Source: a virus. From it: a DNA stretch of 55,962 nucleotides. Location: the IMG/VR virus record IMGVR_UViG_3300012850_000001, one strand, 5' to 3'. Positions within the stretch are counted from its first letter, which is position 1, and every line of letters starts with the position of its first letter. The notes below the pieces were generated by a model that worked only from the letters and a program-made list of their open reading frames with translations, made no database searches and was not told where the DNA came from. This document shows positions 1,753 through 55,962 of the stretch, in pieces. Position numbers and translations under genes: made by a program.

Positions 1753-1797
1753 TGGTGCGCCTGGGCAGATTCGAACTGCCGACACCCGCTTTAGGAG
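1753..1797 (-). other. attP common core: 3' 45 nt of a tRNA-Arg(CCT)-like gene, from the anticodon loop through CCA.
   Basis: The minus strand reads CTCCTAAAGCGGGTGTCGGCAGTTCGAATCTGCCCAGGCGCACCA. This gives T arm GGCAG/TTCGAAT/CTGCC, an acceptor 3' strand plus CCA, and anticodon loop CUCCUAA. The 5' half of the tRNA is absent. The site is adjacent to the integrase gene. Confidence 0.75.
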
Positions 1798-1839
1798 AAC
1801 CATGCTCCAACGGGTATGACGCCAGGTCAGAGCGTTGTG

Positions 1840-2985
1840 CTAGGCGGCTTGGGGGCTGCCTGGGGGCTGGCGCTTCTGGGCGATCAGCGCGGACAGGGCG
1901 ATGCCCACGTGGTCGAGGTCGTCGTCGAACAGCTCTGCGTACTCGTCGAGGGTCATCGCCGCGGACGCGTGACCGACCATCCGCTGGATCGCCTTCACGT
2001 TCGCTCCTGCCGAGATTGCCAGGGACACGGCCGTGTGGCGTAGGTCGTGGGGTGTGATGTGCGGGAGCCCGACCGCGGTCTTCGCGTCCTTGAACTGTCG
2101 CTCGGACCAGTTGTGGCGGTCGACCTGCTTGCCTCGCAGGGTGGTGAAGACGTAGTCGTCGCCCTTCTTGTCGGCGATCGCGGTGCGCAGGATCGGCAGG
2201 AGCTCGTCGACGAGCGGGACCGACCGAACACCTGCGGGTGTCTTCGTCGAGTCTGAAGCCACTCGCCGGCCACCGACGAGGGCGACGGTCGCGGTCACGT
2301 TGACTCGCTTCCGGACGAGGTTCACGTCCCGGGCGCGCAGTTCGGCGGCTTCCCCGACTCGCAGGCCGGTGAACGCGAGGAACGTCGTCCACGCCCGCCA
2401 GTGTGCGGGCATCGCTGCGACGAGGGCGTCGACCTGCGGCACGGTCAGGTAGTGCTTGCGGCGGGTCTTGGCCGATCCGAACTTCACGCCGAGGGCCGGG
2501 TTCACGCCGAGGCGTCGCGCCTTGACGGCTGCGTTGAGCATCGCGGAGAACACCGACCAGACGCGCCGTCGGGTCGCCACTGTGCCGACGTCGAGAAGCC
2601 CGACCCAGACCTGTACCGCCTCATGGGTGACGTCAGCGAGGGCGAGGTCGCCCCACCGCGGGTAGACGTGCACCTTCAGGATCGAGGCGTTGCGCTCTTC
2701 GGTGGAGGGGCGCAGGTCGACGCGCGACGAGTGCCACTGCTGGCCCCACTCGCGCACGGTCATCGCGGACCGTTCGGCGGTGACGTAGGTGCCGGCGCGT
2801 TGCTCGGTCGCGGTCCGCTCGAGGTGGCCGCGTGCGGCGTCCTTGTTGTCGAACGCCTTCTTGCGTCGCTGCCCGCCCGGCTCGGTCCAGACGGCGAGCC
2901 ACCGTGAGCCGCGGCCGTAGCGCTCCGTGCGGGTCTTCTTGCCGTCGGGGCCAGCCTGCATCCACCGATCTTCAACGTGCGCCAT
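1840..2985 (-). CDS. int: Tyrosine integrase.
   Basis: C-terminal HDLRHTAVSLAISAGANVKAIQRMVGHASAAMTLDEYAELF (R..HxxR..Y catalytic signature). Typical phage Int N-terminus. Confidence 0.95.
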   Translation of the reverse strand: MAHVEDRWMQAGPDGKKTRTERYGRGSRWLAVWTEPGGQRRKKAFDNKDAARGHLERTATEQRAGTYVTAERSAMTVREWGQQWHSSRVDLRPSTEERNASILKVHVYPRWGDLALADVTHEAVQVWVGLLDVGTVATRRRVWSVFSAMLNAAVKARRLGVNPALGVKFGSAKTRRKHYLTVPQVDALVAAMPAHWRAWTTFLAFTGLRVGEAAELRARDVNLVRKRVNVTATVALVGGRRVASDSTKTPAGVRSVPLVDELLPILRTAIADKKGDDYVFTTLRGKQVDRHNWSERQFKDAKTAVGLPHITPHDLRHTAVSLAISAGANVKAIQRMVGHASAAMTLDEYAELFDDDLDHVGIALSALIAQKRQPPGSPQAA

Positions 2986-8983: not shown

Positions 8984-9964
8984 ATGGGTGACCCACGCAA
9001 GACCCTAGCCACCCGACCACGGCACGCCCGAGACCACCGAATCGTCGAGGGGTACTCGACGGCCCGCATGGTCGGGTACTGCCTGTGGGCGGTCGTCATC
9101 GTGGCCGCGATCGTCGTCGGGACCGCGGTCGCAGCTCACGCCGCCGGGTCCGACTCCCCCACCCCGTACACCGTCGACCGCACCGGGATCGCCCTGCCTG
9201 CGGGGCGCACGTTCCAGGACAACGGGCACGTGAACATCCGCTGGACCACCGGGACCGGGGCCGTGCACTTCGAGGGCAAGTGCATCACCCGCACCGACGC
9301 GGAGTGCGCCGGCAAGCGGCACGACGACGCCCAGTACATCGGTGCCGCGTTCATCCCCTGGTCTGCGTTCGGTGACCCGGACTGCGTGACGTGGGTGCAG
9401 ATCAGCGACTTCAACGAGCACTACGGCGAGGGCGGCCAGCCCCCCGTCTGCCTGACCACCAAGGAGCCCACCCCGTGCGCCTCTTCCCCGACCGTGACCC
9501 CGTCGCCCAGCGTGACTCCGAGCGCGACTCCCACCTCGCAGCCGTCTTCAACGACGTCCCCGACGGCGGAACCGTCTACGACGCCCGAGGCAACGCCTAC
9601 ACCGTCACCAAGCGCCCCCTCCCCGAGTCCTTCGATGTCCTCGCCGCCCGCGTCACCCTCACCCTCCGTGACCAGCACGCCCCAGCCGACGCACACCCCG
9701 GCGGTGCCTGCGACGCCCTCGACCCCGAGTTCACCGGCCCCGAGTGCGACGTCGACGCCCTCGCACGAGCCCACGAGGACGCCTGCCGTGCTGGCGACCC
9801 AGCCGCCGTCCGCGACACCTACCGGGCCTGGCTCGCAGCGACCACCCGTCGCACCCGCCGTCTTGGCCGCAACCGGGACTGACACCACCGCGGCGCTGGC
9901 CGTTGGGATCGTCGTCGTGGTCGTCGGTTGCGTCCTCTACACGGCAGCACGGAGGAACCGATGA
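8984..9964 (+). CDS. Secreted, sortase-anchored (LAxTG) surface protein with a long Pro/Thr/Ser-rich linker.
   Basis: Signal-peptide-like LWAVVIVAAIVVGTAVAAHAAG, a Cys-containing globular part, a ~135-aa PTS-rich tract, then LAATG plus a hydrophobic helix and an RRNR tail. Confidence 0.75.
   Translation: MGDPRKTLATRPRHARDHRIVEGYSTARMVGYCLWAVVIVAAIVVGTAVAAHAAGSDSPTPYTVDRTGIALPAGRTFQDNGHVNIRWTTGTGAVHFEGKCITRTDAECAGKRHDDAQYIGAAFIPWSAFGDPDCVTWVQISDFNEHYGEGGQPPVCLTTKEPTPCASSPTVTPSPSVTPSATPTSQPSSTTSPTAEPSTTPEATPTPSPSAPSPSPSMSSPPASPSPSVTSTPQPTHTPAVPATPSTPSSPAPSATSTPSHEPTRTPAVLATQPPSATPTGPGSQRPPVAPAVLAATGTDTTAALAVGIVVVVVGCVLYTAARRNR
9470..9870 (+). repeat. Low-complexity Pro/Thr/Ser-coding tract inside the surface-protein gene (approximate bounds).
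   Basis: The translation is almost entirely P/T/S/A. Confidence 0.7.
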
Positions 9965-11529
9965 GCGCCAACCTCACGGTCACGGACTTCTTTTGCGGCG
10001 CCGGCGGCTCGTCGACCGGCATGACCGAGGTCCCCGGCCTCACGGTCGTCATGGCCGCGAACCACTGGGCCCTCGCGATCGAGACCCACAACCAGAACCA
10101 CCCCTACACCGACCACGCAGCCGCGGACCTCCACCTCGAGGAGCCGTCGTTCTTCAAGAAGACCGACATCCTGTGGGCGTCGCCCGAGTGCACGAAGTGG
10201 TCGCAGGCGAACGGGACCGCCCGGCCGGCGATCGAGGAGGGGTTGTTCGAGGACCCGCTGTCGTCGGACGCCGCGACCCGCTCGCGTCTCCTGATGTTCG
10301 ACGTCCTCAAGTTCGCCGAGTACCACCAGTACCGGGCGATGATCATCGAGAACGTCGTCGACATCGCGACCCAGGAGAAGTACCGGCTCGCGTGGCACGA
10401 GTGGCGCCGCCAGCTCCGTGCCCTCGGGTACCGGTTCCGGGTCGTCTCGCTGAACAGCATGCACGCCCAGATGCTCGGCGACCCCGCCCCACAGTCCCGC
10501 GACCGGATCTACATCGTGTGCTGGCGCGAGGGCGAGCGCGCCCCCGACGTCGAGCGCGCGATGCGGCCGAAGGCGTGGTGCCCGAAGTGCGACGCCATCA
10601 TCGAGGCGTCACAGTCGTGGAAGAACGGCCGCGTCGTCGGCAAGTACCGGTCCCAGTACCTCTACGTGCACGGCGCCTGCGGGGCAGTCGTCGAGCCGAC
10701 GTGGCTGCCGGCCGCCGCGGCGATCGACTGGTCGATCCCCGGTGAGCGGATCGGCGACCGGTCGAAGCCCCTCGCGGAGAAGACGCAGCTCCGGATCGCC
10801 GCCGGCATCGCCAGGTACTGGGGCCCGCTGCACATCGAGGAGTCCGGCAACCAGTACGACGCCGCGGACCCGAAGCACCCCCAGCACGGCGACCCGAACG
10901 CCTACTACCGGGCGTGGCCGACCAGCGAGTACATGCGGACCCTGACGACCCGCGAGACGCGCGGGTTCGTGCAGCCGCCGTTCGTCGCCGAGATGTACGG
11001 AACGAGCACCGCGCGCCCGGTCACCGAGCCGGCCGGGACGTTCACCGCAGGCGGCAACCACCACGCGCTCGTCATGACGAACCAGCGGCAGAACCGGGTC
11101 CGCACGACGAGCGAGCCCATGCCGACGAGCACCACCGCCACCGGCGGCGGGCAGGCACTCATCCACCGGATGAACAGCGGCGGCGCCGAGATGACGACAC
11201 CGATGTTCGAGGAGCTGCGGACCCTGACGACGAAGGGCCACCAGGCACTCGTGCAGTCCGGGCGCCCGAACGTGACCGTCGCCGACCTGCGGGCCGCGCG
11301 CGAGCTGATGCCGGACGTCCTGTTCCGGATGTTCCGCCCGCACGAGGTCGCCGCCGGCATGGCGTTCCCCAGCACGTACCGCTGGGACGCCATCGACCCG
11401 AAGACCGGGAAGCCCGCCACGAATGCCGACGTCACGAAGATGGCCGGCAACGCCGTCACCCCGCCGTGCTCCCGTGACCTCGCCGCCACCGTCTACGAGG
11501 CCCTCACCGGAGAGGCGGTTGCGGCATGA
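9961..11529 (+). CDS. DNA (cytosine-5) methyltransferase.
   Basis: DFFCGAGG (motif I), SPECTKWS (PC motif IV), IIENV (motif VI), GNAVTPP (motif X). ATGA overlap at the start. Confidence 0.9.
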   Translation: MSANLTVTDFFCGAGGSSTGMTEVPGLTVVMAANHWALAIETHNQNHPYTDHAAADLHLEEPSFFKKTDILWASPECTKWSQANGTARPAIEEGLFEDPLSSDAATRSRLLMFDVLKFAEYHQYRAMIIENVVDIATQEKYRLAWHEWRRQLRALGYRFRVVSLNSMHAQMLGDPAPQSRDRIYIVCWREGERAPDVERAMRPKAWCPKCDAIIEASQSWKNGRVVGKYRSQYLYVHGACGAVVEPTWLPAAAAIDWSIPGERIGDRSKPLAEKTQLRIAAGIARYWGPLHIEESGNQYDAADPKHPQHGDPNAYYRAWPTSEYMRTLTTRETRGFVQPPFVAEMYGTSTARPVTEPAGTFTAGGNHHALVMTNQRQNRVRTTSEPMPTSTTATGGGQALIHRMNSGGAEMTTPMFEELRTLTTKGHQALVQSGRPNVTVADLRAARELMPDVLFRMFRPHEVAAGMAFPSTYRWDAIDPKTGKPATNADVTKMAGNAVTPPCSRDLAATVYEALTGEAVAA

Positions 11530-12764: not shown

Positions 12765-13792
12765 CTACCCGAATGATCTCCCTGCGGTCGATCCGACCAC
12801 ACCCGCACAACCCTCGCGAAGACCTGGGTGACCTGACGGACCTGACCGCGGACATCCGTGACAACGGCCTCATCGAACCCCTCGTCGTGGTGCCGGGGTC
12901 GTGGGGAAAGCAGCACGGCACGTGCGGCGACTGCGACGAGCAGGTCCCACGCACCCAGGCTGGGCTCCTGGCTGAGCACATCATCGACGGTCGACCATGC
13001 CCCGGCGGGTCTGACGTCGCCGCCGACGACTGGTTCGTGGTTGCCGGGCACCGGCGCCGTGCCGGGTCACTCGGGGCCGGTCTCGTCGAGGTCGAGTGCG
13101 TGACCCGGTTCGACCTTCGCACCCAGGCCGAGCAGATCGCGCTCATGCTCCGGGAGAACGAGCACCGCCGCGACCTGACTCCTCTCGAGGAGGCCCGCGG
13201 CTACCACCAGCTCACGTTGGAAGGCATGACCCCGACGCGGATCGCTCAGCAGGTGAAGCGGTCGAAGAAGACCATCGACCGTCGCCTCGCCCTGCTGTCT
13301 CTGTCGGACAAGGCGAAGAAGCGTCTGCGGTCCGGGGTGATGACCCTCGCGGACGCGGAGGCGATGCTGGACCTGACCCCGGAGAAGGCGGAGCGGGCGT
13401 TGCGGTCGGTCGGTACCAAGGAGTTCCGGCAGGACTTGGCCCGTGAGCGGACCGGGTCGGACGAGCGGGAGGTGATCGCCCACGAGCTGCGGGCGTCGTT
13501 CCTGACGCCGTTCCTGCGCGGATCCCAGCGACCACCCCGCGAGGCACTGCCGAAGGTCCGCAAGGAGGCCGTCACCACACTGGCGAACCGGCTTCCGAAG
13601 AGGGTCGTGAAGGGATGGCTCTCGGCGCTCGGCGTCGCCGACCCGATGGACGTGCACGGTGTCGACCCCGACCGGGCCCTCATCGCCCTGGCCGCGGTCA
13701 TCGAGACCGACCCGGCCGGCCAGTACGACCTCCTCGGCGTCCTCGGGTACGAGATGTCCCCTGTCGAGGTCGAGCTGTTGGAGGGCGCGTGA
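12761..13792 (+). CDS. ParB-like nuclease-domain protein.
   Basis: ISLRSIRPHPHNPREDLGDLTDLTADIRDNGLIEPLVV...VAGHRRRAG, and an HTH at TPTRIAQQVKRSKKTIDRRL. Confidence 0.75.
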   Translation: MTTRMISLRSIRPHPHNPREDLGDLTDLTADIRDNGLIEPLVVVPGSWGKQHGTCGDCDEQVPRTQAGLLAEHIIDGRPCPGGSDVAADDWFVVAGHRRRAGSLGAGLVEVECVTRFDLRTQAEQIALMLRENEHRRDLTPLEEARGYHQLTLEGMTPTRIAQQVKRSKKTIDRRLALLSLSDKAKKRLRSGVMTLADAEAMLDLTPEKAERALRSVGTKEFRQDLARERTGSDEREVIAHELRASFLTPFLRGSQRPPREALPKVRKEAVTTLANRLPKRVVKGWLSALGVADPMDVHGVDPDRALIALAAVIETDPAGQYDLLGVLGYEMSPVEVELLEGA

Positions 13793-16293
13793 GCACCTAC
13801 GAGGAGTTCCTCCACGGCAAGGTCAACTTCGACCACTCGCACGGGTTCGACGTGACCGACGAGCAGGTCCACCCGATCCTCCTGCCTCACCAGCGAGACA
13901 TCGTGAAGTGGGCTGTCAAGGGTGGCCGACGAGCGATCTTCGCTGCATTCGGGCTGGGCAAGTCGGTCATGCAGCTCGAGACGCTTCGGCTCATCGACGA
14001 GCACGAGGGCGGCCGCTCACTGATCGTGGCGCCGCTCGGCGTCCGGCAGGAGTTCATCCGAGACGCCCGAGAGCTGCTCGGATTCGACGTCAGGTTCGTA
14101 CGGTGGTCGGCCGAGGTCGACGGCCCGGGGATCTACATCACGAACTACGAGTCGGTCCGCGATGGCCGCTTGGACCCGTCGCTCTTCACGGCCGTGAGCC
14201 TGGACGAGGCGTCGGTGCTGCGGTCGTTCGGCTCGAAGACCTACCAGACGTTCCTGCGCCTGTTCGAGGACGTGCGCTACCGCTTCGTCGCCACCGCGAC
14301 CCCGTCCCCGAACCGGTACAAGGAACTGATCCACTACGCCGGCTACCTCGGCGTCATGGACACCGGGCAGTCCCTCACCCGGTTCTTCCAGCGCGACTCC
14401 ACGAGCGCGGGCAACCTCACCCTGTACCCGCACAAGGAGCGCGAGTTCTGGCTCTGGCTCAACACCTGGGCCGTGTTCCTGCAGCGACCGTCCGACCTGG
14501 GCTACTCCGACGACGGATATGACCTGCCAGAGCTGGACATCCGCTACCACGAGGTCGCCGTCGACCTGACCGAGGGAGTGACCGTCGAACGTGACGGTCA
14601 GGCGCGGCTGTTCAGGGATGCCTCGCTCGGAGTCGCTGACGCGTCCCGGGAGAAGCGGGACACTATCGATGCCCGTGTGGCAGCCGTGGCGGCGATCGTG
14701 GCGGAGGCACCCGCTGACCACTTCGTGTTGTGGCACGACCTCGAGGCGGAGCGGCACGCGATCAAGGGCGCGATCCCGGACGCCGTCGAGGTGTTCGGAT
14801 CCCAGGACCTCGACGAGCGCGAGCAGCGGATCATCGACTTCTCCGACGGCCAGCACCGGATCCTCGCGACGAAGCCGATCCTGTCCGGCTCCGGCTGCAA
14901 CTTCCAGCGCCACTGTCACCGCGCCGTGTACGTCGGCGTCGGGTTCAAGTTCAACGACTTCTTCCAGTCCATCCACCGCCTGCAGCGGTTCCAGCAGACC
15001 GAGCGCGTGCGCGTCGACATCGTCTACGCCGAGTCCGAGCGTGAGGTCGTCCGCACCCTGCAGGCCAAGTGGGCACAGCACAAGGAGCTGACCGCAACCA
15101 TGTCCGACGTCATCCGTGAGTTCGGTCTCAACCAGGACGCGATCAACGCAGCACTCGTCCGCTCGATGGGCGTCGACCGCTTCGAGGCTTCCGGCAGCGG
15201 GTGGACCGCGGTCAACAACGACACCGTCGACGAGACCGCCCGCATGGACGAGAGCAGCGTCGACCTGATCGTCACGTCGATCCCGTTCGCCAACCACTAC
15301 GAGTACACGCCGACCTACGAGGACTTCGGCCACACCGACGACAACGACCACTTCTGGGCACAGATGGACTACCTGACGCCGAGCCTGCTGCGGGTGCTCA
15401 AGCCCGGGCGCATCTATGCCTGCCACGTGAAGGACCGGATCAACTTCGGCAACGTGACCGGCGCCGGCATCCCGACCGTCTCGCCGTTCCACGCCGAGGC
15501 GATCGCGCACGGCATCAAGCACGGATTCGACTACATGGGGATGATCACGGTCGTCACCGACGTCGTGCGGGAGAACAACCAGACGTACCGCCTCGGCTGG
15601 TCGGAGATGGCCAAGGACGGCACGAAGATGGGCGTCGGGTCACCCGAGTACATCCTGCTGTTCCACAAGCCGCAGACGGACCGCACCCGCGGCTACGCCG
15701 ATGTGCCCGTCCGCAAGGACAAGGCCGACTACACGCGCGCCCGCTGGCAGGTCGACGCCCACGCGTTCTGGCGCTCGTCCGGCGACCGGCACCTGACCCC
15801 TGACGAGCTCGTCGGTCTGCCCGTCGAGCAGCGATCGCGGATGTTCACCGAGCAGACGCTCCGCGAGGTCTACGACTACGAGACCCACATCAAGGTCGGG
15901 GAGCACCTCGACGCCAGGGGCGCGCTGCCGGCGACGTTCATGTCCCTCGCGCCCGGGTCGTGGGCTCCGGACGTCTGGCACGACGTGAACCGGATGCTGA
16001 CGCTGAACGGGGCGCAGAAGCAGCGGAACCTGACGATGCACGTCTGCCCGTTGCAGTTCGACATCGTCGACCGGCTCATCAGTCGCTTCTCCAACGAGGG
16101 CGAGCTCGTCTACGACCCCTTCGGCGGGCTCTCAACGGTCGCCGTGCGGGCACTCAAGGCCGGCCGCTGCGGTCGCACGACCGAGTTGAGTCCGGGGTAC
16201 TGGCTCGACGGCGTGAAGTACCTGCAGGCGGAGGAGCGCGAGCGATCGTTGCCCACACTGTTCGACCTGCCGACGGCAGAGGAGGCGGCGTGA
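13789..16293 (+). CDS. SNF2/SF2 helicase fused to a beta-class N6-adenine/N4-cytosine DNA methyltransferase.
   Basis: Helicase motifs GLGKS, DEAS, TATPSPN and QSIHRLQRFQQ. Methyltransferase motif IV DLIVTSIPFA, then motif I VYDPFGGLST. GGAGGG lies before GTG 13789. Confidence 0.85.
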   Translation: MSTYEEFLHGKVNFDHSHGFDVTDEQVHPILLPHQRDIVKWAVKGGRRAIFAAFGLGKSVMQLETLRLIDEHEGGRSLIVAPLGVRQEFIRDARELLGFDVRFVRWSAEVDGPGIYITNYESVRDGRLDPSLFTAVSLDEASVLRSFGSKTYQTFLRLFEDVRYRFVATATPSPNRYKELIHYAGYLGVMDTGQSLTRFFQRDSTSAGNLTLYPHKEREFWLWLNTWAVFLQRPSDLGYSDDGYDLPELDIRYHEVAVDLTEGVTVERDGQARLFRDASLGVADASREKRDTIDARVAAVAAIVAEAPADHFVLWHDLEAERHAIKGAIPDAVEVFGSQDLDEREQRIIDFSDGQHRILATKPILSGSGCNFQRHCHRAVYVGVGFKFNDFFQSIHRLQRFQQTERVRVDIVYAESEREVVRTLQAKWAQHKELTATMSDVIREFGLNQDAINAALVRSMGVDRFEASGSGWTAVNNDTVDETARMDESSVDLIVTSIPFANHYEYTPTYEDFGHTDDNDHFWAQMDYLTPSLLRVLKPGRIYACHVKDRINFGNVTGAGIPTVSPFHAEAIAHGIKHGFDYMGMITVVTDVVRENNQTYRLGWSEMAKDGTKMGVGSPEYILLFHKPQTDRTRGYADVPVRKDKADYTRARWQVDAHAFWRSSGDRHLTPDELVGLPVEQRSRMFTEQTLREVYDYETHIKVGEHLDARGALPATFMSLAPGSWAPDVWHDVNRMLTLNGAQKQRNLTMHVCPLQFDIVDRLISRFSNEGELVYDPFGGLSTVAVRALKAGRCGRTTELSPGYWLDGVKYLQAEERERSLPTLFDLPTAEEAA

Positions 16294-22331: not shown

Positions 22332-23017
22332 CCGAGCGCCTGACCGACGAGCGGCTCACGGAGATCCGGACACGGCTGGGTGCGGCGACACCAGGACCGT
22401 GGCACTGGCGCAACACCCAAGAGGTCTACCTCGTGGGTGCCCAGACGCGCATCGTCATGGCCTTCGAGCGCATGGGGATGCAGGGTGCACAGCCGAGCTT
22501 CCGGGACAGCGACAACCTGCTCTGGCCCGCCGGCCGGGAGAATCTGAACGCCATCCCCGACGCCACGCTGATCGCACACGCACCGGCCGACATCGCGGAC
22601 CTGCTCGCGGAGGTCGAGCGCCTGCGACGCGCCACGACCACGCTCGACAGGACCGCCGACGAGCTGGCCGGGGACGTGCTGCGGGCGGTGGGTGAGCGGG
22701 ACGAGTGGAAGGCCCGTTGGAAGGCCACCGTCGAGGACGCACAGACCGCACGCAACGAGCGCGACGAGGCTCGGGACAAGTTCGCCGCACAGGTCACCGT
22801 CGCCAACGGGTACTACGCCGAGTGGCAGAAGGCTCGGGACGCGGTGGAGGCCGTGCTCGCGGTGCACCGGCCACTGAACAACCTCGGCTCGCCGCCCTGT
22901 GCGGTCTGCCTGATCGAGACGGGCGACGACGAGCCGGGGCTGGCGCCGTGGCCCTGTGAGACCGTGCGCGCGATCACCGCTACCGGGTACGTGACCAACC
23001 CGAAGGATTCCGTGTGA
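22328..23017 (+). CDS. Ead/Ea22-like protein.
   Basis: N-terminal DERLTEIRTRLGAATPGPWHW signature typical of the family. Coiled-coil centre. Confidence 0.55.
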   Translation: MTERLTDERLTEIRTRLGAATPGPWHWRNTQEVYLVGAQTRIVMAFERMGMQGAQPSFRDSDNLLWPAGRENLNAIPDATLIAHAPADIADLLAEVERLRRATTTLDRTADELAGDVLRAVGERDEWKARWKATVEDAQTARNERDEARDKFAAQVTVANGYYAEWQKARDAVEAVLAVHRPLNNLGSPPCAVCLIETGDDEPGLAPWPCETVRAITATGYVTNPKDSV

Positions 23018-24297
23018 CGACTGAACTGCCCCACGACCTTGACGCCGAACGCGCCGTGCTCGGCGCAGCCCTCACCTCCGCTGCGGCGCTGGCTGAGGTG
23101 ACCGGCATCGTCACGGGCGCCGACTTCTACAAGCCCGCCCACGAAGCCACCTGGGCTGCTGTCGTGGCCTTGCACGACCAAGGCCGACCGGTCGACACGA
23201 TCACCGTCGTGGCCCGCATGCAGGAAGACGGCACCCTGCACCGGTTCGGTGGACCGCTCGCCGTGCACGACCTCGCAGCCTCCGTTATCACCGCCGCGAA
23301 CGCCGGGTACCACGCCCGCATCGTCCTCGAGCATGCTGCGCGCCGTCGCCTCATCGCCGCCGGCACCCGCATCGTCCAGGTCGCGTCCGGCGCCGAAGCC
23401 ACCACCAGCGACCTGGTCGCGACCGCCCTCGACGAGCTCACAGCCGCGGCCCGACCAACGCGCCTCGACACTCCCACTCTCGTCGAGCAGGTCAACGCCG
23501 CGATCGACGCGATCGAGACGTCCCAGTCGTGCGGGTGGAACTGGCCCTGGACCGACGTGCGCCGCGTCCTCGTCCCGCCAGCACCGGGCAACTTCGTGCT
23601 GTTCGCCGCGCGACCAGGCGTCGGGAAGTCCGTGACCCTCATCGACCTGGCCCGGCACATCGCGATCCACTGCAACCTGCCCGTCGTCCTGCACACGCTC
23701 GAGATGTCAGCCACGGAGGTGATCCACCGAATCGTGGCCGCTGAGGAGCGGATCCCCCTAGACCACATCAAGCAGAACACCCTCACCGACGACGAGTGGG
23801 GCCGGGTTGCCGCCGCGGTGCAGAAGATCGTCTCCTCACCCCTTGTCATCGTCGACGATCCCACCGCCGGTGTACCTGAGGTCCGGGCATCCATCCGCAC
23901 CCACAGGCCGGCCGCGGTCCTCTTCGACTACTTCCAGCTCGGACGCACCAACCCGGCCGTGAAGGACCGCCGGCAGGCCCTCGAGGAGATGTCCCGAGGG
24001 TTCAAGCTCCTCGCGAAGGAGGAGCAGGTTCCCGTGATCGCGGCGGCCCAGGTGAACCGCAAGTCCCAGGACCGCACCACGAAGGTCCCGATGCTGTCCG
24101 ACCTACGCGAGACCGGGTCACTCGAGCAGGACTGCGACACCGCCGTCATGATCCACCGCGAAGACGTCGAGGAACCCGAGTGCGAGCGTGCGGGCGAGGT
24201 CGACATGATCGTCGCGAAGCAACGCCACGGCGGACAGGGCCGGGCGGTCCTGGTCCACCAGCTGCACTACTCCCGGTTCGTCGACATGGCCGCATGA
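23014..24297 (+). CDS. dnaB: DnaB-like replicative helicase.
   Basis: N-terminal DLDAERAVLGAAL, Walker A ARPGVGKS, and downstream DnaB C-terminal motifs. Confidence 0.95.
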   Translation: MTTELPHDLDAERAVLGAALTSAAALAEVTGIVTGADFYKPAHEATWAAVVALHDQGRPVDTITVVARMQEDGTLHRFGGPLAVHDLAASVITAANAGYHARIVLEHAARRRLIAAGTRIVQVASGAEATTSDLVATALDELTAAARPTRLDTPTLVEQVNAAIDAIETSQSCGWNWPWTDVRRVLVPPAPGNFVLFAARPGVGKSVTLIDLARHIAIHCNLPVVLHTLEMSATEVIHRIVAAEERIPLDHIKQNTLTDDEWGRVAAAVQKIVSSPLVIVDDPTAGVPEVRASIRTHRPAAVLFDYFQLGRTNPAVKDRRQALEEMSRGFKLLAKEEQVPVIAAAQVNRKSQDRTTKVPMLSDLRETGSLEQDCDTAVMIHREDVEEPECERAGEVDMIVAKQRHGGQGRAVLVHQLHYSRFVDMAA

Positions 24298-24316
24298 CCA
24301 ACGAGAGGATGCACGG

Positions 24317-24670
24317 ATGAGTGACCTGACAACGTTCCTGCTGGAGCGGATCACGGAGGACGAGACGGTGGCGCGGAAGGCCACGCCGGTCTCGTGGGCC
24401 ATCGTCGATCCGCCGGCCGATTCGGTCAGCCTCGAGACCATCGTCGGCACCGGCCTGGCCTACAACCGTGACGCCGCGAGGCACATCGTGCGGTGGGACC
24501 CGGACCGCGTCCTGGCCGAGTGCGAGGCGAAGCGGCGGATCTTGGCGCACTGCGGGAGTGGGTTGGCCTACGGCTCGTTCGGGGAGAGTCTCCTGGGCGA
24601 GACCGTGCTACGTCTCATTGCGCTGCCCTACGCCGACCACCCGGACTACCAGGAGGACTGGCGGCTGTAG
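24317..24670 (+). CDS. DUF6221-like protein.
   Basis: FLLERITEDETVARKA...HIVRWDPDRVLAECEAKRRIL...ALPYADHPDYQEDWR. Confidence 0.6.
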   Translation: MSDLTTFLLERITEDETVARKATPVSWAIVDPPADSVSLETIVGTGLAYNRDAARHIVRWDPDRVLAECEAKRRILAHCGSGLAYGSFGESLLGETVLRLIALPYADHPDYQEDWRL

Positions 24671-24690
24671 CCGACACAGGGCCGCGCTCG

Positions 24691-24696
24691 TACACT
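24691..24696 (+). promoter_or_regulatory. -10-like hexamer TACACT, 6 nt before ATG 24703 (candidate leaderless promoter).
   Basis: TACACT cgttcg ATG with no SD. The 10-mer ACACTCGTTC recurs before the tRNA at 25030. Confidence 0.45.
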
Positions 24697-24702
24697 CGTT
24701 CG

Positions 24703-24972
24703 ATGCCGTGCCCGCCTGACGCCCACTACGCGACGTGGCTCGTGAACCTCACAGAGAACCCACCAGGGCAGCAGGTCCTTGAGCCGCGCCGCCGCGCGAT
24801 CGCGACCGGCGAGCTCTACGACGGGCGCCCCGTCCGACTGCCGGTCTGGGCGGTGGCGCGTGCGCGGGGCTGGGTGTGCGTGGAGCAGAAGGTCGACATA
24901 CACCGGACGTGGCTCGCCTGGCTACCAGCGGGCCAAGTGAGGCCAGTTGTGCACAGCGAACCGGGTGAATAG
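24703..24972 (+). CDS. Hypothetical protein.
   Basis: In the frame of track ORF 24493..24972, from the ATG after the -10-like hexamer. Confidence 0.55.
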   Translation: MPCPPDAHYATWLVNLTENPPGQQVLEPRRRAIATGELYDGRPVRLPVWAVARARGWVCVEQKVDIHRTWLAWLPAGQVRPVVHSEPGE

Positions 24973-25043
24973 TGACGTGAGTTTCCACAGGGGGGCGGAA
25001 CGCGTTGCTACTGGCTGCGGTGCCGTAGGACACTCGTTCTAGT

Positions 25044-25117
25044 GCCCCTGTAGCTCAGAGGATAGAGCGCACTTCTGGCGAAGGTTGAGGTCGCGGGTTC
25101 GAGTCCCGCCAGGGGCA
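25044..25117 (+). tRNA. tRNA-like gene with an Arg-type body and a non-canonical anticodon arm. Isotype unresolved; the best 7-nt loop gives anticodon GGC.
   Basis: Acceptor GCCCCTG/CAGGGGC, D arm GCTC-AGAGGATA-GAGC, T arm GCGGG-TTCGAGT-CCCGC. The anticodon region CACTTCTGGCGAAGGTTG is one nt too long for a standard arm. Confidence 0.7.
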
Positions 25118-25171
25118 CAAGAGAGCGAGAGGCCCCGGGACGTCCATCCCGGGGCCTCTCCTGTCTCTTGT
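25117..25171. terminator. Long hairpin after the tRNA-like gene (candidate bidirectional terminator).
   Basis: ACAAGAGA-gc-GAGAGGCCCCGGGA-cgtcca-TCCCGGGGCCTCTC-ctg-TCTCTTGT. Confidence 0.7.
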
Positions 25172-25181
25172 GAGGACATTA

Positions 25182-25231
25182 CGCCCTGCTCTCAAGAGCG
25201 CACTTCTGGCGTCTCCAATACTGCAAGGTTG
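25182..25231 (+). pseudogene. Degenerate partial duplicate of the tRNA 5' half and anticodon arm, with a 13-nt insertion.
   Basis: AGAGCGCACTTCTGGCG (25195-25211) is identical to 25064-25080. TCTCCAATACTGC is then inserted, followed by AAGGTTG (25225-25231), which equals 25081-25087. Confidence 0.6.
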
Positions 25232-25321
25232 CTTGACAACCGTCAACTGCCCTGCGTAGCCATGTACGTCACTCTCGGGTGAATCTGTCCGTTCGGCCAC
25301 CTCACCCGGTCCAAGCTCTCG

Positions 25322-25333: not shown

Positions 25334-25591
25334 ATGCACTCCGGTTCGGCGGACAGGCTCGCGTTGGCGCAGCGGATCCTCAACTCTCACGGAGTCCCAC
25401 CAGGACATCACCGCGACGTCGACCGGCCGATCCCCGTGAGGGTGCGGCTCGAGTGGGAGCGCGACGGCGTTCAGGTCATCGAAACCATGGCGGTCGAGTG
25501 GACGTCCCACCTGGTGAGGGTGTGGATGAACGACCGCCGGTGGATGCTCGGGGCGGTGTGGGTGGGCGCGGAGGACGTGCGTCGGGTGTGA
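25334..25591 (+). CDS. Hypothetical protein.
   Basis: Mostly GC3-rich ORF. The stop TGA is part of a junction motif. Confidence 0.55.
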   Translation: MHSGSADRLALAQRILNSHGVPPGHHRDVDRPIPVRVRLEWERDGVQVIETMAVEWTSHLVRVWMNDRRWMLGAVWVGAEDVRRV

Positions 25592-25618
25592 CACGGAACT
25601 GGTGACCATGACCGCATG
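25589..25618 (+). promoter_or_regulatory. Junction motif copy: TGACAC-N10-ACCATG-ACCGC-ATG.
   Basis: Start codon at +27 from the T of TGACAC. No SD. Confidence 0.5.
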
Positions 25619-26248
25619 CAGGTGGTGGTCCTCTCGAACCGTGGTGACGCGTACGTGCACGACGCGATCGCGTCCTTGGCCGAGCACGTCACCGGGTGGG
25701 GCGAGCTCACGATCGTCGATGACTCCGGCGATGAGGATCACCGGGCTCGGATGGCGGTCCGCTACCCGGACGCTCAGATCGTCCCTGTCGCACCCAAGCC
25801 TGCGGGGTACGGGCGGGCCATGGGGACGGTGTTCGACGTGATGGCCGGCGAGCACGCCCTGTTCTGGGAAGAGGACTTCCGCGCAGTCAGCGACATCGAC
25901 CTAGAGGCCCTGACCGCGCACCTGCGGGGTGACCCGTGGCTGGCGCAGGTCGCGCTCCTGCGGGGCCCGTGGTTCGGCAACGAGCACGCCACCGGCGGGG
26001 TCATCGAGGCCCGGGAGGCGCAGGGCGCGAAGTTCACACGCGTCGGTGGCCTGATCCGGCACGTAGACCACTTCACGTCCAACCCGTCAGTCCTGCCCCG
26101 GTGGGTGTGGGAGCGCGGCTGGCCGGAAGGCGACTGGTCGGAGTCCAGGTTCGGCCGCCAGCTCGTCGCGGACGGGCACGGGTTCGCGTACATCGACGGC
26201 GGTGTCATGGTCGAGCACGTCGGCGTCCGCAGCGGATTCGGGTACTGA
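25616..26248 (+). CDS. Glycosyltransferase, GT2-like (GT-A fold).
   Basis: N-terminal VVVLSNRGDAYVHDAIASL...IVDDSGD (DxD-like). Confidence 0.65.
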   Translation: MQVVVLSNRGDAYVHDAIASLAEHVTGWGELTIVDDSGDEDHRARMAVRYPDAQIVPVAPKPAGYGRAMGTVFDVMAGEHALFWEEDFRAVSDIDLEALTAHLRGDPWLAQVALLRGPWFGNEHATGGVIEAREAQGAKFTRVGGLIRHVDHFTSNPSVLPRWVWERGWPEGDWSESRFGRQLVADGHGFAYIDGGVMVEHVGVRSGFGY

Positions 26249-26895
26249 TGACGCAGGTGTGGATCCCGTGGCGTGACCACCCGTCCCGCCGCAAGGCGCG
26301 CGACTTCGTGGAGTCGTGGTGGCGTCGGCACGGGTTCGACGTCCAGTACGTCGACGTGCCCGGTGACCCGTTCAACCTGGCGGCGTGCCGCAACGAAGCC
26401 GTCCGCCTGTCGACCTCACCGCTGCTGGTCATCGCGGACGCCGACACCCTCCCCGAGTACGCGTCCCTGACGGTCGCGCTCACCATCGCCTTCGCGGAGG
26501 GTGGGACGGTCCTGCCGTACGACGAGTATCGGTCCCTGCGAGCGGATGGGTCACGTCAGGCCCTCGCAGGGTTCCCGCTCGAGCGGTGCAAGCACATGGT
26601 CGTCCCGGGCGCCTGCTCCGGTGTGTTCGTGACGACGAAGCGCGGGTGGGCGTTGCACCACGGGCAGGACGAGACGTTCGCCGGCTGGGGGTGTGAGGAC
26701 GCCGCGTGGGAGATGACCCACACGACCCTGATCGGTCCGCCGATGCGCGTCCCGGGCCGGGTGTTCGCGTTGGGGCACCAGTCGCAGGACAAGGACGGGG
26801 AACCGACGCGGAACAACTTCCACCGCATCGCCCTGTACGAGGCCGCACGAGGTGACCGGGACCGGATCCGCGCCCTGGCGCAGGGGGCAGCGTGA
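26248..26895 (+). CDS. Glycosyltransferase-like protein (GT-A type).
   Basis: NLAACRNEAVRLSTSPLLVIADADTLP (DxD) and a C-terminal WGCEDAAW-type segment. Confidence 0.55.
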   Translation: MTQVWIPWRDHPSRRKARDFVESWWRRHGFDVQYVDVPGDPFNLAACRNEAVRLSTSPLLVIADADTLPEYASLTVALTIAFAEGGTVLPYDEYRSLRADGSRQALAGFPLERCKHMVVPGACSGVFVTTKRGWALHHGQDETFAGWGCEDAAWEMTHTTLIGPPMRVPGRVFALGHQSQDKDGEPTRNNFHRIALYEAARGDRDRIRALAQGAA

Positions 26896-27812
26896 AGGTG
26901 ATCGGGTTCGCCCTGTCGTATGTGCACGCCCGCCGCATCGGCGCGGAGCTCGCGCTGCACCACCTCCTGGCGCACCTCGCCGGCCAGGGTCACGACGTCC
27001 AGGTCGTCACGACGACTGCGGTCCCACGGGCCACGATCGACGGTGTCCACGTCATACCGGCGAACGCACGCCGCCCTCAGGGGGACGTGATCGTCGTGAA
27101 CGCCGGCCTGGCGGGGAAGGCCCGCCAGTGGTGGCCGCACACCCCGCTGGTGATCTGGGCGCACAACAACCAGGTCCCCACGATCCTCGACGTCCGGGCC
27201 GGCATGGCGAAGGGCAACGCCGCCCTGGTCACGAACACCGACCACATGAGGGACGTCTACCGTTCCGTCCTGCAGCTCGACTCGACGGTCCTGCACCCAC
27301 CGATCAACCCGGGCCCGGTGACCGACGCGGGCGACAGCGTCGCCCTCATCAACCTGACGCCCGACAAGGGCTCGGACGTGTTCTGGGACCTCGCCGCCAC
27401 CAACCCGCACCTGCCGTTCCTGGGCGTCCGCGGTGGGTACGGGACGCAGGACGTCCGAGCGCTCGACAACGTCAGCGTCGTCGACCACGGCGACCTGGCT
27501 GACGTGTGGGCCCGCACCCGCATCCTGCTCGTCCCGTCGCGGCACGAGTCGTACAGCATGGTCGCCGCTGAAGCCGCCACCCGCGGCATCCCCGTCATCG
27601 CCGCGGACCTGCCCGGGATCCGCGAGGCCGCGGGACACGGCGGGACGTACGTCATCAACACCTGGCAGGCCGCCCTGGACACCACCCTGGCCCGGTGGGA
27701 CGAGAAGCACACGAACGCACTCGTGCACGCCGCATCCACGCAAGCCGCCAACGAGCTGACCGCCGTCACCGCCCTGATCGAACAGTTCCGTGTGACAGAA
27801 CGGGCCGCATGA
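26892..27812 (+). CDS. Glycosyltransferase, GT4/GT1-like (GT-B fold).
   Basis: ILLVPSRHESYSMVAAEAATRGIPVIAADLPGIREA (EX7E region). Confidence 0.8.
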   Translation: MKVIGFALSYVHARRIGAELALHHLLAHLAGQGHDVQVVTTTAVPRATIDGVHVIPANARRPQGDVIVVNAGLAGKARQWWPHTPLVIWAHNNQVPTILDVRAGMAKGNAALVTNTDHMRDVYRSVLQLDSTVLHPPINPGPVTDAGDSVALINLTPDKGSDVFWDLAATNPHLPFLGVRGGYGTQDVRALDNVSVVDHGDLADVWARTRILLVPSRHESYSMVAAEAATRGIPVIAADLPGIREAAGHGGTYVINTWQAALDTTLARWDEKHTNALVHAASTQAANELTAVTALIEQFRVTERAA

Positions 27813-30861: not shown

Positions 30862-30977
30862 GCGAGCGCAGCGACTCGGCTTGGGAGGCGTACCACGTGC
30901 CAGACCGTGAGCTTGACGCGGTCTTCCTCATGCTCGCGGCGATCCACGAACTGATCGAGCAGCGGCTGACGCAGTGA
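30858..30977 (+). CDS. Hypothetical small protein (39 aa).
   Basis: ATGA-coupled on both sides. Confidence 0.4.
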   Translation: MSERSDSAWEAYHVPDRELDAVFLMLAAIHELIEQRLTQ

Positions 30978-32458
30978 CGGTCGCATGGGCTGAGGCAGCG
31001 GCCCGCCTCTTCGAACCACCACCCCCACCCCGCTGGGCTACCCCGGGAGAGATGGCGCGTGCCCTCGACCCGGCCACGGTCCAGACGCCGGCGCTCGACC
31101 TCATCGACGCCGCCCTCGTCGAGGCGTTCAACACCCGCAACGCGCGCCTCGTCATCGCCATGCCGCCGCAGGAGGGCAAGAGCGAACGCGCGTCCCGTCG
31201 GTTCCCGCTCTGGGCCCTCACCCAGAACCCGGACCTACGCATCGCGATCGCGTCGTTCGAGCACGACACTGCCCGACGGTGGGGCCGCGTCGTCCGCGAC
31301 GACATCACCATGCACTCAGCCGACCTGGGCCTCAAGGTCCGCGACGACATGTCCGCCCAAGCCGAGTGGGCCCTCGACGGCCACAAGGGTGGCCTGTACT
31401 GCGTCGGTGTCGGCGGCGCACTGACCGGCCGGCCCGTCGACCTCATGATCATCGACGACCCCATGAAGGGCCACGAGCAGGCCGACTCACCCACGCACCG
31501 GGAGAAGGTGTGGGACTGGTGGACAGGCACCGTCGCCACCCGGTTCTCCCCGACCACACCGGTGATCGTCATCCAGACGCGCTGGCACCCGGACGACCTC
31601 GCGGGCCGCCTGCTGAACGGGGAGACGGCCGACCGGTGGAAGCTGCTGTCGATCCCGGCGCAGTGTGAGGACCCGGAGAACGACCCCCTCGGTCGTACGA
31701 AGATCGACGAGTTCATGGTCTCTGCGCGTGGCCGCACCCAGGATGACTGGGAGCTGCGGAAGGCCGACCAGGCGGCGCGCACGTGGGCTGCCCTGTACCA
31801 GCAGCGCCCCGCCCCCGCTGAAGGTGCCGTGTGGCGGTGGCCGTGGATCGAGACGAACCGTGGCCGCACCGGCGACGTCCTTCTCAAGCTGGCGAAGATC
31901 GTCGTCGGTGTCGACCCAGCAGCCACCTCCAAGAGGACCTCCGACCTGACCGGTATCAGCGTCGCCGGGATCGACTCCGACGGTGAAGCCTGGGTGTTGG
32001 ACGACCGCACGATCCGCGGAACCCCGATCGAGTGGGGCGTGGCCGTCTGGGATGCCGTCATGGACTGGGGTGCACACGAGGTCGTCATCGAGGACAACCA
32101 GGGCGGGGAGATGGTCCTCGAGGTGATGCGGTCGGCGTGGCGGGAGATCCGCAAGCGGCGCCGCATCAACCGCCTCGCGCCACCTGTCCGTCGCGTCCAC
32201 CCGACCGCTGGGCAGGGGAAGCGGGCGCGTGCCGAGTCGGTGGCCGCGTTCTACGAGGTCGGGAAGGTCCACCACGCCGCTGACGGCACGGACAGGCTGT
32301 CGAAGGTGGAGGACCAGATGATCACCTGGACCGGGACCGGCGACTCCCCCGACCGAATCGACGCGCTCGTCCACGCACTGACGGCCCTGTTCCTGCCGCA
32401 GCACTCGGACGCGGCGGTGCCGGCGAAGGTCACCCGACACAACATGCGCGGCCGGTGA
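30974..32458 (+). CDS. Terminase large subunit.
   Basis: AMPPQEGKSE (Walker A-like), LMIIDDP (Walker B), IQTRWHPDDL, and a C-terminal nuclease region with VGVDPA. Confidence 0.9.
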   Translation: MTVAWAEAAARLFEPPPPPRWATPGEMARALDPATVQTPALDLIDAALVEAFNTRNARLVIAMPPQEGKSERASRRFPLWALTQNPDLRIAIASFEHDTARRWGRVVRDDITMHSADLGLKVRDDMSAQAEWALDGHKGGLYCVGVGGALTGRPVDLMIIDDPMKGHEQADSPTHREKVWDWWTGTVATRFSPTTPVIVIQTRWHPDDLAGRLLNGETADRWKLLSIPAQCEDPENDPLGRTKIDEFMVSARGRTQDDWELRKADQAARTWAALYQQRPAPAEGAVWRWPWIETNRGRTGDVLLKLAKIVVGVDPAATSKRTSDLTGISVAGIDSDGEAWVLDDRTIRGTPIEWGVAVWDAVMDWGAHEVVIEDNQGGEMVLEVMRSAWREIRKRRRINRLAPPVRRVHPTAGQGKRARAESVAAFYEVGKVHHAADGTDRLSKVEDQMITWTGTGDSPDRIDALVHALTALFLPQHSDAAVPAKVTRHNMRGR

Positions 32459-55739: not shown

Positions 55740-55962
55740 GCCTTGCAGCAGCGATCGCAGCAGACCGGACGCGTGGCGGTGCGGCGTGCAGCACGGCACT
55801 TGTGCGTGACGTCCTGTCCGCGTCTGACCGGGTCGACCTCGACGTGGCCCTCTCGGACGCTTCAGTGACCACAGCGACGATCGCACGGGCCCTCGGCTCA
55901 CTCGGGCACAGGATCAGCGCCGGAGCGTTGCAGCGGCACCGGCGAGGGGACTGCACCTGTGA
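55736..55962 (+). CDS. Small HTH-like protein, truncated by the window edge. It ends at 133 after circularisation (78 aa).
   Basis: GTGA-coupled GTG. VTTATIARALGSLGHRISAGALQRH. No stop lies inside the window end. Confidence 0.55.
   Translation, partial: MSLAAAIAADRTRGGAACSTALVRDVLSASDRVDLDVALSDASVTTATIARALGSLGHRISAGALQRHRRGDCTC
55840..55962. repeat. Terminal direct repeat copy 2, identical to 1-123.
   Basis: Same comparison as copy 1. Confidence 0.95.

Follow-up and report, generated by a model that had tools for sequence, protein, structure and literature searches.

The virus record IMGVR_UViG_3300012850_000001 of IMG/VR is a DNA stretch of 55,962 nt. This whole stretch, referred to here as the window, represents a complete, circularly assembled phage genome with a G+C content of 66-73%. 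At 25044-25231 it contains a transfer RNA (tRNA) gene with a non-canonical anticodon arm, a long hairpin and, beyond the hairpin, a partial copy of the same tRNA. The locus had been outlined in a preliminary description made from the sequence alone, which was confirmed base for base in its observations and partly supported in its interpretation.

The tRNA gene and its partial copy

ARAGORN called a single tRNA in the whole window, at 25044-25118 on the plus strand, and labeled it Ala(ggc), drawing a bulge in the anticodon stem rather than a normal 5-bp stem. The Rfam tRNA model RF00005 matched 25044-25117 over its full length (1-71) at 57.4 bits, against a cut-off of 29. As had been claimed, the acceptor, D and T arms are standard, with a 7-bp acceptor, a D arm with G18 and G19, a T arm with GTTCGA and the usual bases at the tertiary contacts; the discriminator is A73 and CCA is not encoded. 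The D arm had also been likened to that of tRNA-Arg, and the comparison held. The D loop AGAGGAUA carries A20, the body without the anticodon arm is 82% identical to the Arg isoacceptors of one reference Actinomycetes genome, the eight closest tRNAs of that genome by body identity include no Val or Ala, and phage tRNA-Arg(UCU) genes are identical to the window tRNA over its first 25-26 nt.

The main determinant for alanyl-tRNA synthetase is the G3:U70 pair, and that for arginyl-tRNA synthetase is C35. Both were found to be absent, as noticed before: the acceptor has C3:G70, which leaves only the anticodon GGC and A73 in agreement with tRNA-Ala, and position 35 is G when the loop is read with 7 nt, C standing there only in a shifted register with an 8-nt loop. 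The tRNA is therefore genuine, with an Arg-type body and without Ala or Arg identity in the standard register. No near match to it was found in cultured phages, where the distant matches were generic tRNAs of at most 76% identity. A 16-mer of the anticodon arm had 23 matches in IMG/VR, all of them chance matches in coding DNA; the full anticodon arm had no match in the JGI metagenomes, nor did the T arm plus acceptor in IMG/VR. Upstream of the gene, a candidate promoter (Table 1) that falls below a strict consensus scan ends 9 nt before the tRNA.

The 17-mer AGAGCGCACTTCTGGCG, which covers tRNA positions 21-37 at 25064-25080, recurs exactly at 25195-25211, 131 nt away and downstream of the long hairpin. 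Chance would give about 0.1 such pair per 56-kb window and far fewer within 200 nt, so the recurrence pointed out in the preliminary description is beyond chance. The second occurrence is preceded by a degenerate acceptor/D segment GCCCTGCTCTCA (25183-25194) and followed by the 13-nt stretch TCTCCAATACTGC (25212-25224) and by AAGGTTG (25225-25231), all of which lie where they had been placed before. Identity is complete (17/17) in this block, and the remainder of the copy has deletions that include the whole D loop, as in the relatives described below.

Surplus tRNAs with an extra anticodon-arm nucleotide

The window tRNA was compared by BLAST with 401 sampled Actinomycetes genomes; one that was flagged as unpublished (G036) carries none of the conclusions. 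The top group consisted of tRNAs with the same Arg-type body, a likewise overlong arm and the loop UG(A/G)C(G/U), which ARAGORN labels '?(Val|Arg)(gacg)', '?(Ala|Arg)(ggcg)' or Val(gac). This pattern occurs in 12 of the 401 genomes, all of 1.3-1.5 Mb, at 16 sites that are often clustered and number two or three per genome. With two such tRNAs in viral contigs, two in metagenome contigs and that of the window, 21 tRNAs were collected. Viral contig L222 (50% G+C) carries a tRNA with the same loop core CTTCTGGCGAAG, and GGC-type members were added by viral contig L221 and the metagenome contigs L246-L248. In genome G144, the one checked in full, Rfam gave 39 tRNA matches, of which ARAGORN called 38; the standard set is complete (Arg acg/ccg/cct/tct, Val gac/tac, Ala ggc/tgc) and the 'gacg' tRNA is additional, indicating that the family is supernumerary. 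We conclude that the window tRNA is genuine and represents a conserved type that is both non-canonical and surplus to the standard set. The family, which occurs in Actinomycetes and their phages, is marked by an Arg-type body, C3:G70 and a GAC or GGC anticodon.

Two other tRNA-like genes were observed in the course of these comparisons. One, at 2118-2216 of an IMG/VR contig (L220, 56% G+C), is 99 nt long and has a D arm of the Arg type; a long insertion follows its anticodon region, and ARAGORN assigns it the four-base anticodon 'gcgg'. The other, at 1499-1572 of L177 (genome G396, contig 146), is 82% identical to the window tRNA, adjoins a DUF488 gene and has a poorly paired anticodon stem; it is called Ala cgc.

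The anticodon arm of the window tRNA (CACTTCTGGCGAAGGTTG) has 18 nt instead of the standard 17, as the preliminary description had it, and does not form an uninterrupted 5-bp stem with a 7-nt loop; to align it, the Rfam model has to place a 1-nt insertion within the 3' strand of the stem. Read with the 7-nt loop CUGGCGA (anticodon GGC, G37), the stem consists of C-G, A-U, a bulged U, C-G, U-G and U-A. Read with an 8-nt loop, it consists of C-G, A-U, a C/U mismatch, U-G and U-G. To the latter register belongs the explanation that the tRNA is a +1 frameshift suppressor, an Arg(GCG) tRNA with an extra G and the loop CU-GGCG-AA on a 5-bp stem, which would serve quadruplet decoding or programmed recoding. 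The 2+4+2 layout of such a loop is that of classical suppressor tRNAs, ARAGORN proposes four-base anticodons (gacg, ggcg) for relatives, and the body is of the Arg type with A20. However, when the arms of all 21 family members were compared, a 7-nt loop N-U-G-(A/G)-C-(G/U)-N with five pairs and one extra nucleotide suited nearly all arms that carry the extra nucleotide, which is found at positions between the variable-loop side and the point after the third pair. The 8-nt loop left mismatches in most members, giving a well-paired stem in L180 and possibly L187, and in several members the arm is an ordinary 5-bp stem with a 7-nt loop. Nor was any gene identified that depends on a frameshift. 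The comparison therefore favors anticodon GGC with G37 and with the extra nucleotide probably bulged from the 3' strand of the stem, the folding with a bulged stem that had been suggested earlier. A shifted ACG/GCG (Arg) anticodon, considered because of the GACG/GGCG switch between orthologues, was dropped as the principal interpretation, since the arms favor the 7-nt loop. We regard a frameshift suppressor as very improbable; such a function could nevertheless coexist with the antisense module described below.

Mutants of E. coli tRNA-Arg(ACG) with 8- and 9-membered loops were reportedly isolated as +1 suppressors by Tuohy et al. in 1992. The +1 frameshift suppressor tRNAs SufB2 and SufJ have an extra loop nucleotide (PMC7803779, PMC4238358), and yeast mitochondrial tRNA-Thr(UAG) has an 8-nt loop (PMC3113583). 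The window tRNA shares with these one extra nucleotide in the arm, and its loop can be written as CU-GGCG-AA, but the suppressor mutants are laboratory-made, whereas the window family is natural and conserved and favors a 7-nt loop with an extra stem base. The tRNA-Pyl of Methanomethylophilus alvus, in which one unpaired base on the 3' side breaks the anticodon stem (PMC7609411), has the same single bulge in the 3' strand and the same normal 7-nt loop, and is a precedent for a working tRNA of this shape. It differs in its 6-bp stem, archaeal origin, CUA anticodon and own synthetase, and has no antisense partner.

Hybrid-identity tRNAs combine the body of one isotype with the anticodon of another, are surplus to the normal set and are patchily distributed. 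Natural, mistranslating examples such as Streptomyces tRNA-ProA and the allo-tRNAs have been reviewed (PMC11415595, PMC7609411). The window family resembles them in its mixed body and anticodon, its surplus state and its patchiness, but joins an Arg body to an Ala (GGC) or Val (GAC) anticodon, has what appears to be a dedicated antisense RNA and lacks a dedicated synthetase gene nearby.

A putative antisense partner in the relatives and in the window

Near each of the 21 tRNAs, copies of the member's own sequence were sought. A copy lies nearby in 19 of the 21 cases and covers the tRNA's own positions from about 21/27 to 37/41. Between a tRNA and its own partner, the longest exact match reaches 17 nt in the window and has a median of 13 nt over the family; for 420 non-own pairs the mean is 5.9 nt. 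The copy follows the stem sequence of its own tRNA, as in a cognate antisense module. In one orthologous pair, tRNA position 35 has changed from A to G while the copy is unchanged, which still allows a G-U pair. Three gene orders occur. In the 16 small-genome modules and in L248 the order is divergent, with a direct copy 96-131 nt upstream of the tRNA. In L222 it is tandem, with an inverted 13-nt copy downstream of the tRNA, a TTGACA-18-TACATT promoter ahead of this copy on the tRNA strand and a terminator after it. In the window it is convergent, with a direct copy downstream. Since complementarity is kept over three gene orders, these results suggest a relation between two RNAs rather than a scar in the DNA.

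When the modules are aligned, a hairpin flanked by an A-run and a T-run is followed by the truncated 5' half-tRNA (CTGTAGCTC, a shortened D loop, GAGC, N26, the 5' strand of the anticodon stem and the loop), a reverse-strand TGnTAnnnT motif (for example TGCTATAAT in L248 and TGCTATATT in L179), TT(A/G)TCCACA, a TAACTT-type -10 box and the tRNA. A reverse-strand TAnnnT ending 4-11 nt (mostly 6-7) from the copy is present in 17/17 bacterial modules, compared with 5.1 expected from shuffles, and the extended form TGnTAnnnT in 13/17, compared with 0.33. The A-run before the hairpin is a U-run on the reverse strand, and in L248 a U-run is found on the reverse strand only. The conserved reverse-strand -10 box and the hairpin with its U-run indicate that the copy is most likely the gene of a short antisense RNA. 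The simplest reading of the relatives' copies is that they encode an RNA of 55-120 nt whose 5' end would be complementary to the anticodon loop and the 5' strand of the stem. No Rfam family other than tRNA was found in the window region or in the relatives' modules, and none for the partner RNA.

The TT(A/G)TCCACA motif, which resembles a DnaA box, stands at the same column across members and ends 53-56 nt before the tRNA in the measured relatives L179, L187 and L238; its counterpart in the window (GTTTCCACA) ends 54 nt before the tRNA 5' end. A second DnaA-box-like motif, TTGTGCACA, lies at 24947-24955 of the window, and TT(A/G)TCCACA is found upstream of each tRNA in L175-L238. Proteins of the DUF4236-TPR type (L187 1654-2718, L231 1713-2759) adjoin two of the small-genome modules. 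Most other neighbors of the modules have no Pfam match, which suggests a variable island.

In the window, the corresponding RNA is predicted on the minus strand (Table 1). After a seed complementary to tRNA 21-37, it would contain a short hairpin formed by the complement of the D stem without its D loop, a segment complementary to the 5' strand of the acceptor and finally the terminator. The minus-strand RNA folds at -57.3 kcal/mol (z = -6.9), with a free 12-nt 5' end, a small hairpin and a long terminator. Folded together with the tRNA it reaches -107.7 kcal/mol, compared with -91.0 for the separate RNAs, so that the heterodimer is favored by about 17 kcal/mol. Predicted pairing extends over tRNA 1-37 and includes 17 bp at 21-37, the 5' strand of the D stem and the 5' strand of the acceptor, with the D loop skipped, which would explain why a degenerate acceptor/D segment has been kept in register. 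The hairpin at 25118-25170, judged from its structure and tails, would be the shared terminator of the convergent tRNA and predicted antisense RNA.

The preliminary description had taken the 13-nt stretch for an insert at the position where tRNA introns lie. This interpretation was not upheld. In the relatives the copies simply end at 37-41 and the reverse-strand promoter then follows at a fixed distance, and in the window the -10 hexamer CAGTAT of a candidate promoter ends 6 nt before the copy, which is the family spacing; the promoter region covers the 13-nt stretch and AAGGTTG, so that both are better regarded as putative promoter DNA. Moreover, the copy lacks the whole 3' half of a tRNA (variable loop, T arm and acceptor 3' strand), neither ARAGORN nor Rfam calls a tRNA there, and a group I intron would need more than 13 nt. 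AAGGTTG equals the 3' strand of the tRNA anticodon stem and falls in the spacer of the proposed promoter; it would be a second pairing block if transcription began further upstream.

A recombination scar or a pseudo-tRNA had been named as well. The locus would then hold a decaying product of partial tandem duplication or illegitimate recombination next to an odd or degenerating phage tRNA, with no linked function. The copy is indeed truncated by deletions, the minus-strand promoter of the window is weak, and no close phage relative has the cassette. Yet decay should not spare exactly the 17 pairing nucleotides while removing 9 of the 20 that precede them. Nor does it account for the recurrence, in unrelated genomes and in three gene orders, of one truncated design that lacks the D loop and stops at position 37-41, and that in 17 bacterial modules is accompanied by a conserved promoter and terminator, or for the inverted copy in L222; the tRNA itself retains all tertiary-contact nucleotides and scores 57 bits, and the phage attachment site lies 23 kb away. 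A dead duplicate is possible for the window taken alone, but it fails on the selective 17/17 identity and on the family pattern, and overall we consider it unlikely.

Several points weigh against an antisense gene. L221 and L246 have no partner within about 3 kb; an inverted near-copy at L246 (12/14 nt) lies inside a coding frame and was taken as chance. The 16 bacterial modules cannot be counted as independent, since they belong to 12 small genomes that are related to one another; the independent lineages number about four (the small Actinomycetes, L248, L222 and the window). The convergent order is seen in the window only, with no close relative that carries the cassette, and a perfect 17-mer could equally be a recent partial duplication. 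The softest link is the promoter: CAGTAT lacks the TGn and the first T of the relatives, and a consensus scan finds no promoter there. Taking these points together with the family evidence, we consider it probable that the partial copy in the window is the gene of an antisense small RNA that pairs with the neighboring tRNA.

The phage genome and the possible role of the cassette

Table 1. Positions of the locus elements and of other features in the window
Feature	Position	Strand	Details
Non-canonical tRNA	25044-25117	+	Supported by ARAGORN, Rfam, body identity and family arm comparison
Half-tRNA copy	25183-25211	+ (reading)	Acceptor 5' strand minus one C, D stem with 3-nt loop, N26, anticodon-stem 5' strand, loop to 37
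Long GC-rich hairpin	25118-25170	both	Inner 14 bp perfect (25127-25160), outer 7 bp; U-rich tails on both strands
Predicted antisense small RNA	25211 to ~25118	-	~94 nt; 5' 17 nt complement tRNA 21-37
Candidate antisense promoter	25218-25246	-	TTGACG (25246-25241), 17-nt spacer, CAGTAT (25223-25218)
Candidate tRNA promoter	25005-25034	+	TTGCTA (25005-25010), 18-nt spacer, GACACT (25029-25034)
DnaA-box-like motif	24981-24989	+	GTTTCCACA
Likely phage attachment site (attP)	~1790-1836	-	Adjoins integrase; 45 nt equal to 3' half of tRNA-Arg(CCU)
Tyrosine integrase	1840-2985	-	
DNA methylases, two	9928-11529 and 13615-16293		
DnaB helicase	23014-24297		
DUF6221 protein	24317-24670		
Glycosyltransferases	25616-27812		
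Terminase large subunit	30974-32458		

The window belongs to a temperate actinobacterial phage. Its first 123 nt are repeated exactly at 55840-55962, and the assembly is therefore circular or terminally redundant, with a genome of about 55.84 kb. No close relative was found among cultured phages; the top match of the terminase is 46% identical and belongs to a Brevibacterium phage. The small open reading frame (ORF) 24703-24972 encodes a protein that shares 80% identity with one from a prophage of Cellulomonas rhizosphaerae, which makes a Cellulomonas-like host likely. The window DNA is present in two mosquito-metagenome runs, both of DNA, and in no listed RNA run; a 1-kb region around the tRNA is identical in contigs from both; since both runs are possible sources of the window DNA, this is weak independent support for the assembly. 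Protection against restriction is the probable role of the two methylases, one a C5-cytosine methylase and the other a large N6/N4 methylase whose SNF2-like match is weak and sub-threshold.

The likely attP spans the anticodon loop CUCCUAA through to CCA of a tRNA-Arg(CCU). No full host match to this fragment was found in the 401 Actinomycetes genomes or in 121 genomes of the C. rhizosphaerae family; against C. rhizosphaerae itself the identity was 92% over 38 nt. The position of this ordinary attP, directly beside the integrase and 23 kb from the tRNA locus, bears on the idea that the tRNA and its copy are a DNA-level site, either the attachment core of a tRNA-dependent lysogeny or the footprint of a homing-nuclease cassette that split a tRNA and brought a replacement. 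Some phages are known to disrupt a host tRNA and to supply a substitute for it (PMC10865867), and in one relative an HNH gene lies about 0.7 kb away. However, with attP elsewhere, neither ordinary integration nor tRNA-dependent lysogeny accounts for the locus. At E <= 0.05, no Pfam domain, whether of a nuclease, a recombinase or any other kind, was found in the six ORFs surrounding the tRNA, attachment cores and homing scars have no conserved outward promoter and terminator, and the inverted copy in L222 would be left unexplained. A DNA-level site is the most improbable of the explanations considered. One sub-threshold helix-turn-helix match was seen among the six ORFs, on an ORF without coding signal; around the tRNA such signal is confined to the small ORFs 24703-24972 and 25334-25591, which flank the cassette and have no similarity to each other.

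The region from DnaB to ORF 25334-25591 (24298-25317) is a variable slot. In relatives whose DnaB is 57-67% identical, and in one with a 78% homologue of ORF 25334-25591, the order DnaB-glycosyltransferase-terminase is kept and the slot genes differ. The closest relative (L249/L250) has three minus-strand genes in the slot, and its nucleotide homology with the window resumes only at 25318. A TACGCT box lies just downstream of this point and ends 6 nt ahead of an ATG. The cassette is absent from the phage relatives found through DUF6221, DnaB, ORF 25334-25591 and ORF 24703-24972; a DnaB search of genome contigs returned only chromosomal helicases of about 42% identity. These comparisons mark the two-RNA locus as an accessory cassette within a variable part of this temperate actinophage genome.

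An accessory slot would also suit a tRNA that counters host defense, in which the altered arm resists or decoys an anticodon nuclease and the copy is a second decoy or irrelevant. Phage tRNAs with changed anticodon loops that escape tRNA-cleaving defenses are documented (PMC10264068, PMC11555353), and the window tRNA is likewise phage-borne with a non-standard anticodon arm. Those tRNAs, however, keep a clear, working identity of the depleted isotype and have no antisense partner, whereas the window tRNA has neither Ala nor Arg identity in register and its relatives are also found on bacterial chromosomes, next to a full tRNA set. Nor would such a role explain an antisense gene that co-varies with the tRNA and has a promoter of its own, and we hold an anti-defense role to be quite improbable.

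Under the antisense explanation, the locus would be a self-contained cassette of two RNA genes. The first, on the plus strand, would supply a supernumerary tRNA with an Arg body, anticodon GGC, G37 and a bulged extra nucleotide in the 3' strand of the anticodon stem. The second, convergent on the minus strand and sharing the hairpin terminator, would supply an RNA of about 90 nt whose 5' end is the exact complement of tRNA 21-37. This small RNA most likely captures the tRNA, beginning at the anticodon loop, and the pairing would open the anticodon and D arms, so that the tRNA may be kept from charging and decoding or marked as a target of a double-strand RNase. How active this unusual and possibly mis-decoding tRNA is would then depend on the ratio between the two RNAs. 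Transcription in the phage, pairing in vivo, the amino acid of the tRNA, if it carries any, and the role of the free tRNA are matters that we infer from these comparisons.

Short antisense RNAs linked to their targets are found in type I (hok/sok) and type VIII (SdsR/RyeA, CreT/CreA) toxin-antitoxin systems and in the RNA I/RNA II pair of ColE1. The cassette is like them in being compact and mobile, with a predicted short RNA that would have its own promoter and terminator and whose 5' end would pair with the neighbor's RNA. It is unlike them in that the target is a tRNA rather than an mRNA or primer and in that the gene of the partner lies beside that of the target rather than opposite it. 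In the literature on natural 8-nt-loop tRNAs in phages and on antisense RNAs against tRNAs, no such two-RNA module was found described.

The module might silence a mis-decoding or frameshifting tRNA, act as a switch, or be a defense or addiction device. A specific form of this, an RNA-only poison-antidote pair or switch, would have the free tRNA misread GCC or shift at CGCC unless silenced by a short-lived antisense RNA. The tRNA could be charged through its Arg-type body or enter the ribosome uncharged, and GCC codons are abundant. A prophage could in this way punish its own loss or abort superinfection, and the upstream DnaA-box-like motif could tie release of the tRNA to the replication state. 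We consider this specific form doubtful, and rather unlikely.

If the antisense explanation is true, phages and small-genome bacteria would harbor an overlooked class of surplus, identity-scrambled tRNAs, each under a private antisense RNA. Such tRNAs are labeled plain 'tRNA-Ala' or 'tRNA-Val' by gene finders and the partner gene is left unannotated; in annotation, partial tRNA copies beside tRNA genes should not be dismissed as scars or introns. Titration of a single tRNA by a single small RNA could serve to tune or to sabotage translation, and the module would be a tractable natural case for studying how cells tolerate or exploit mis-decoding tRNAs.

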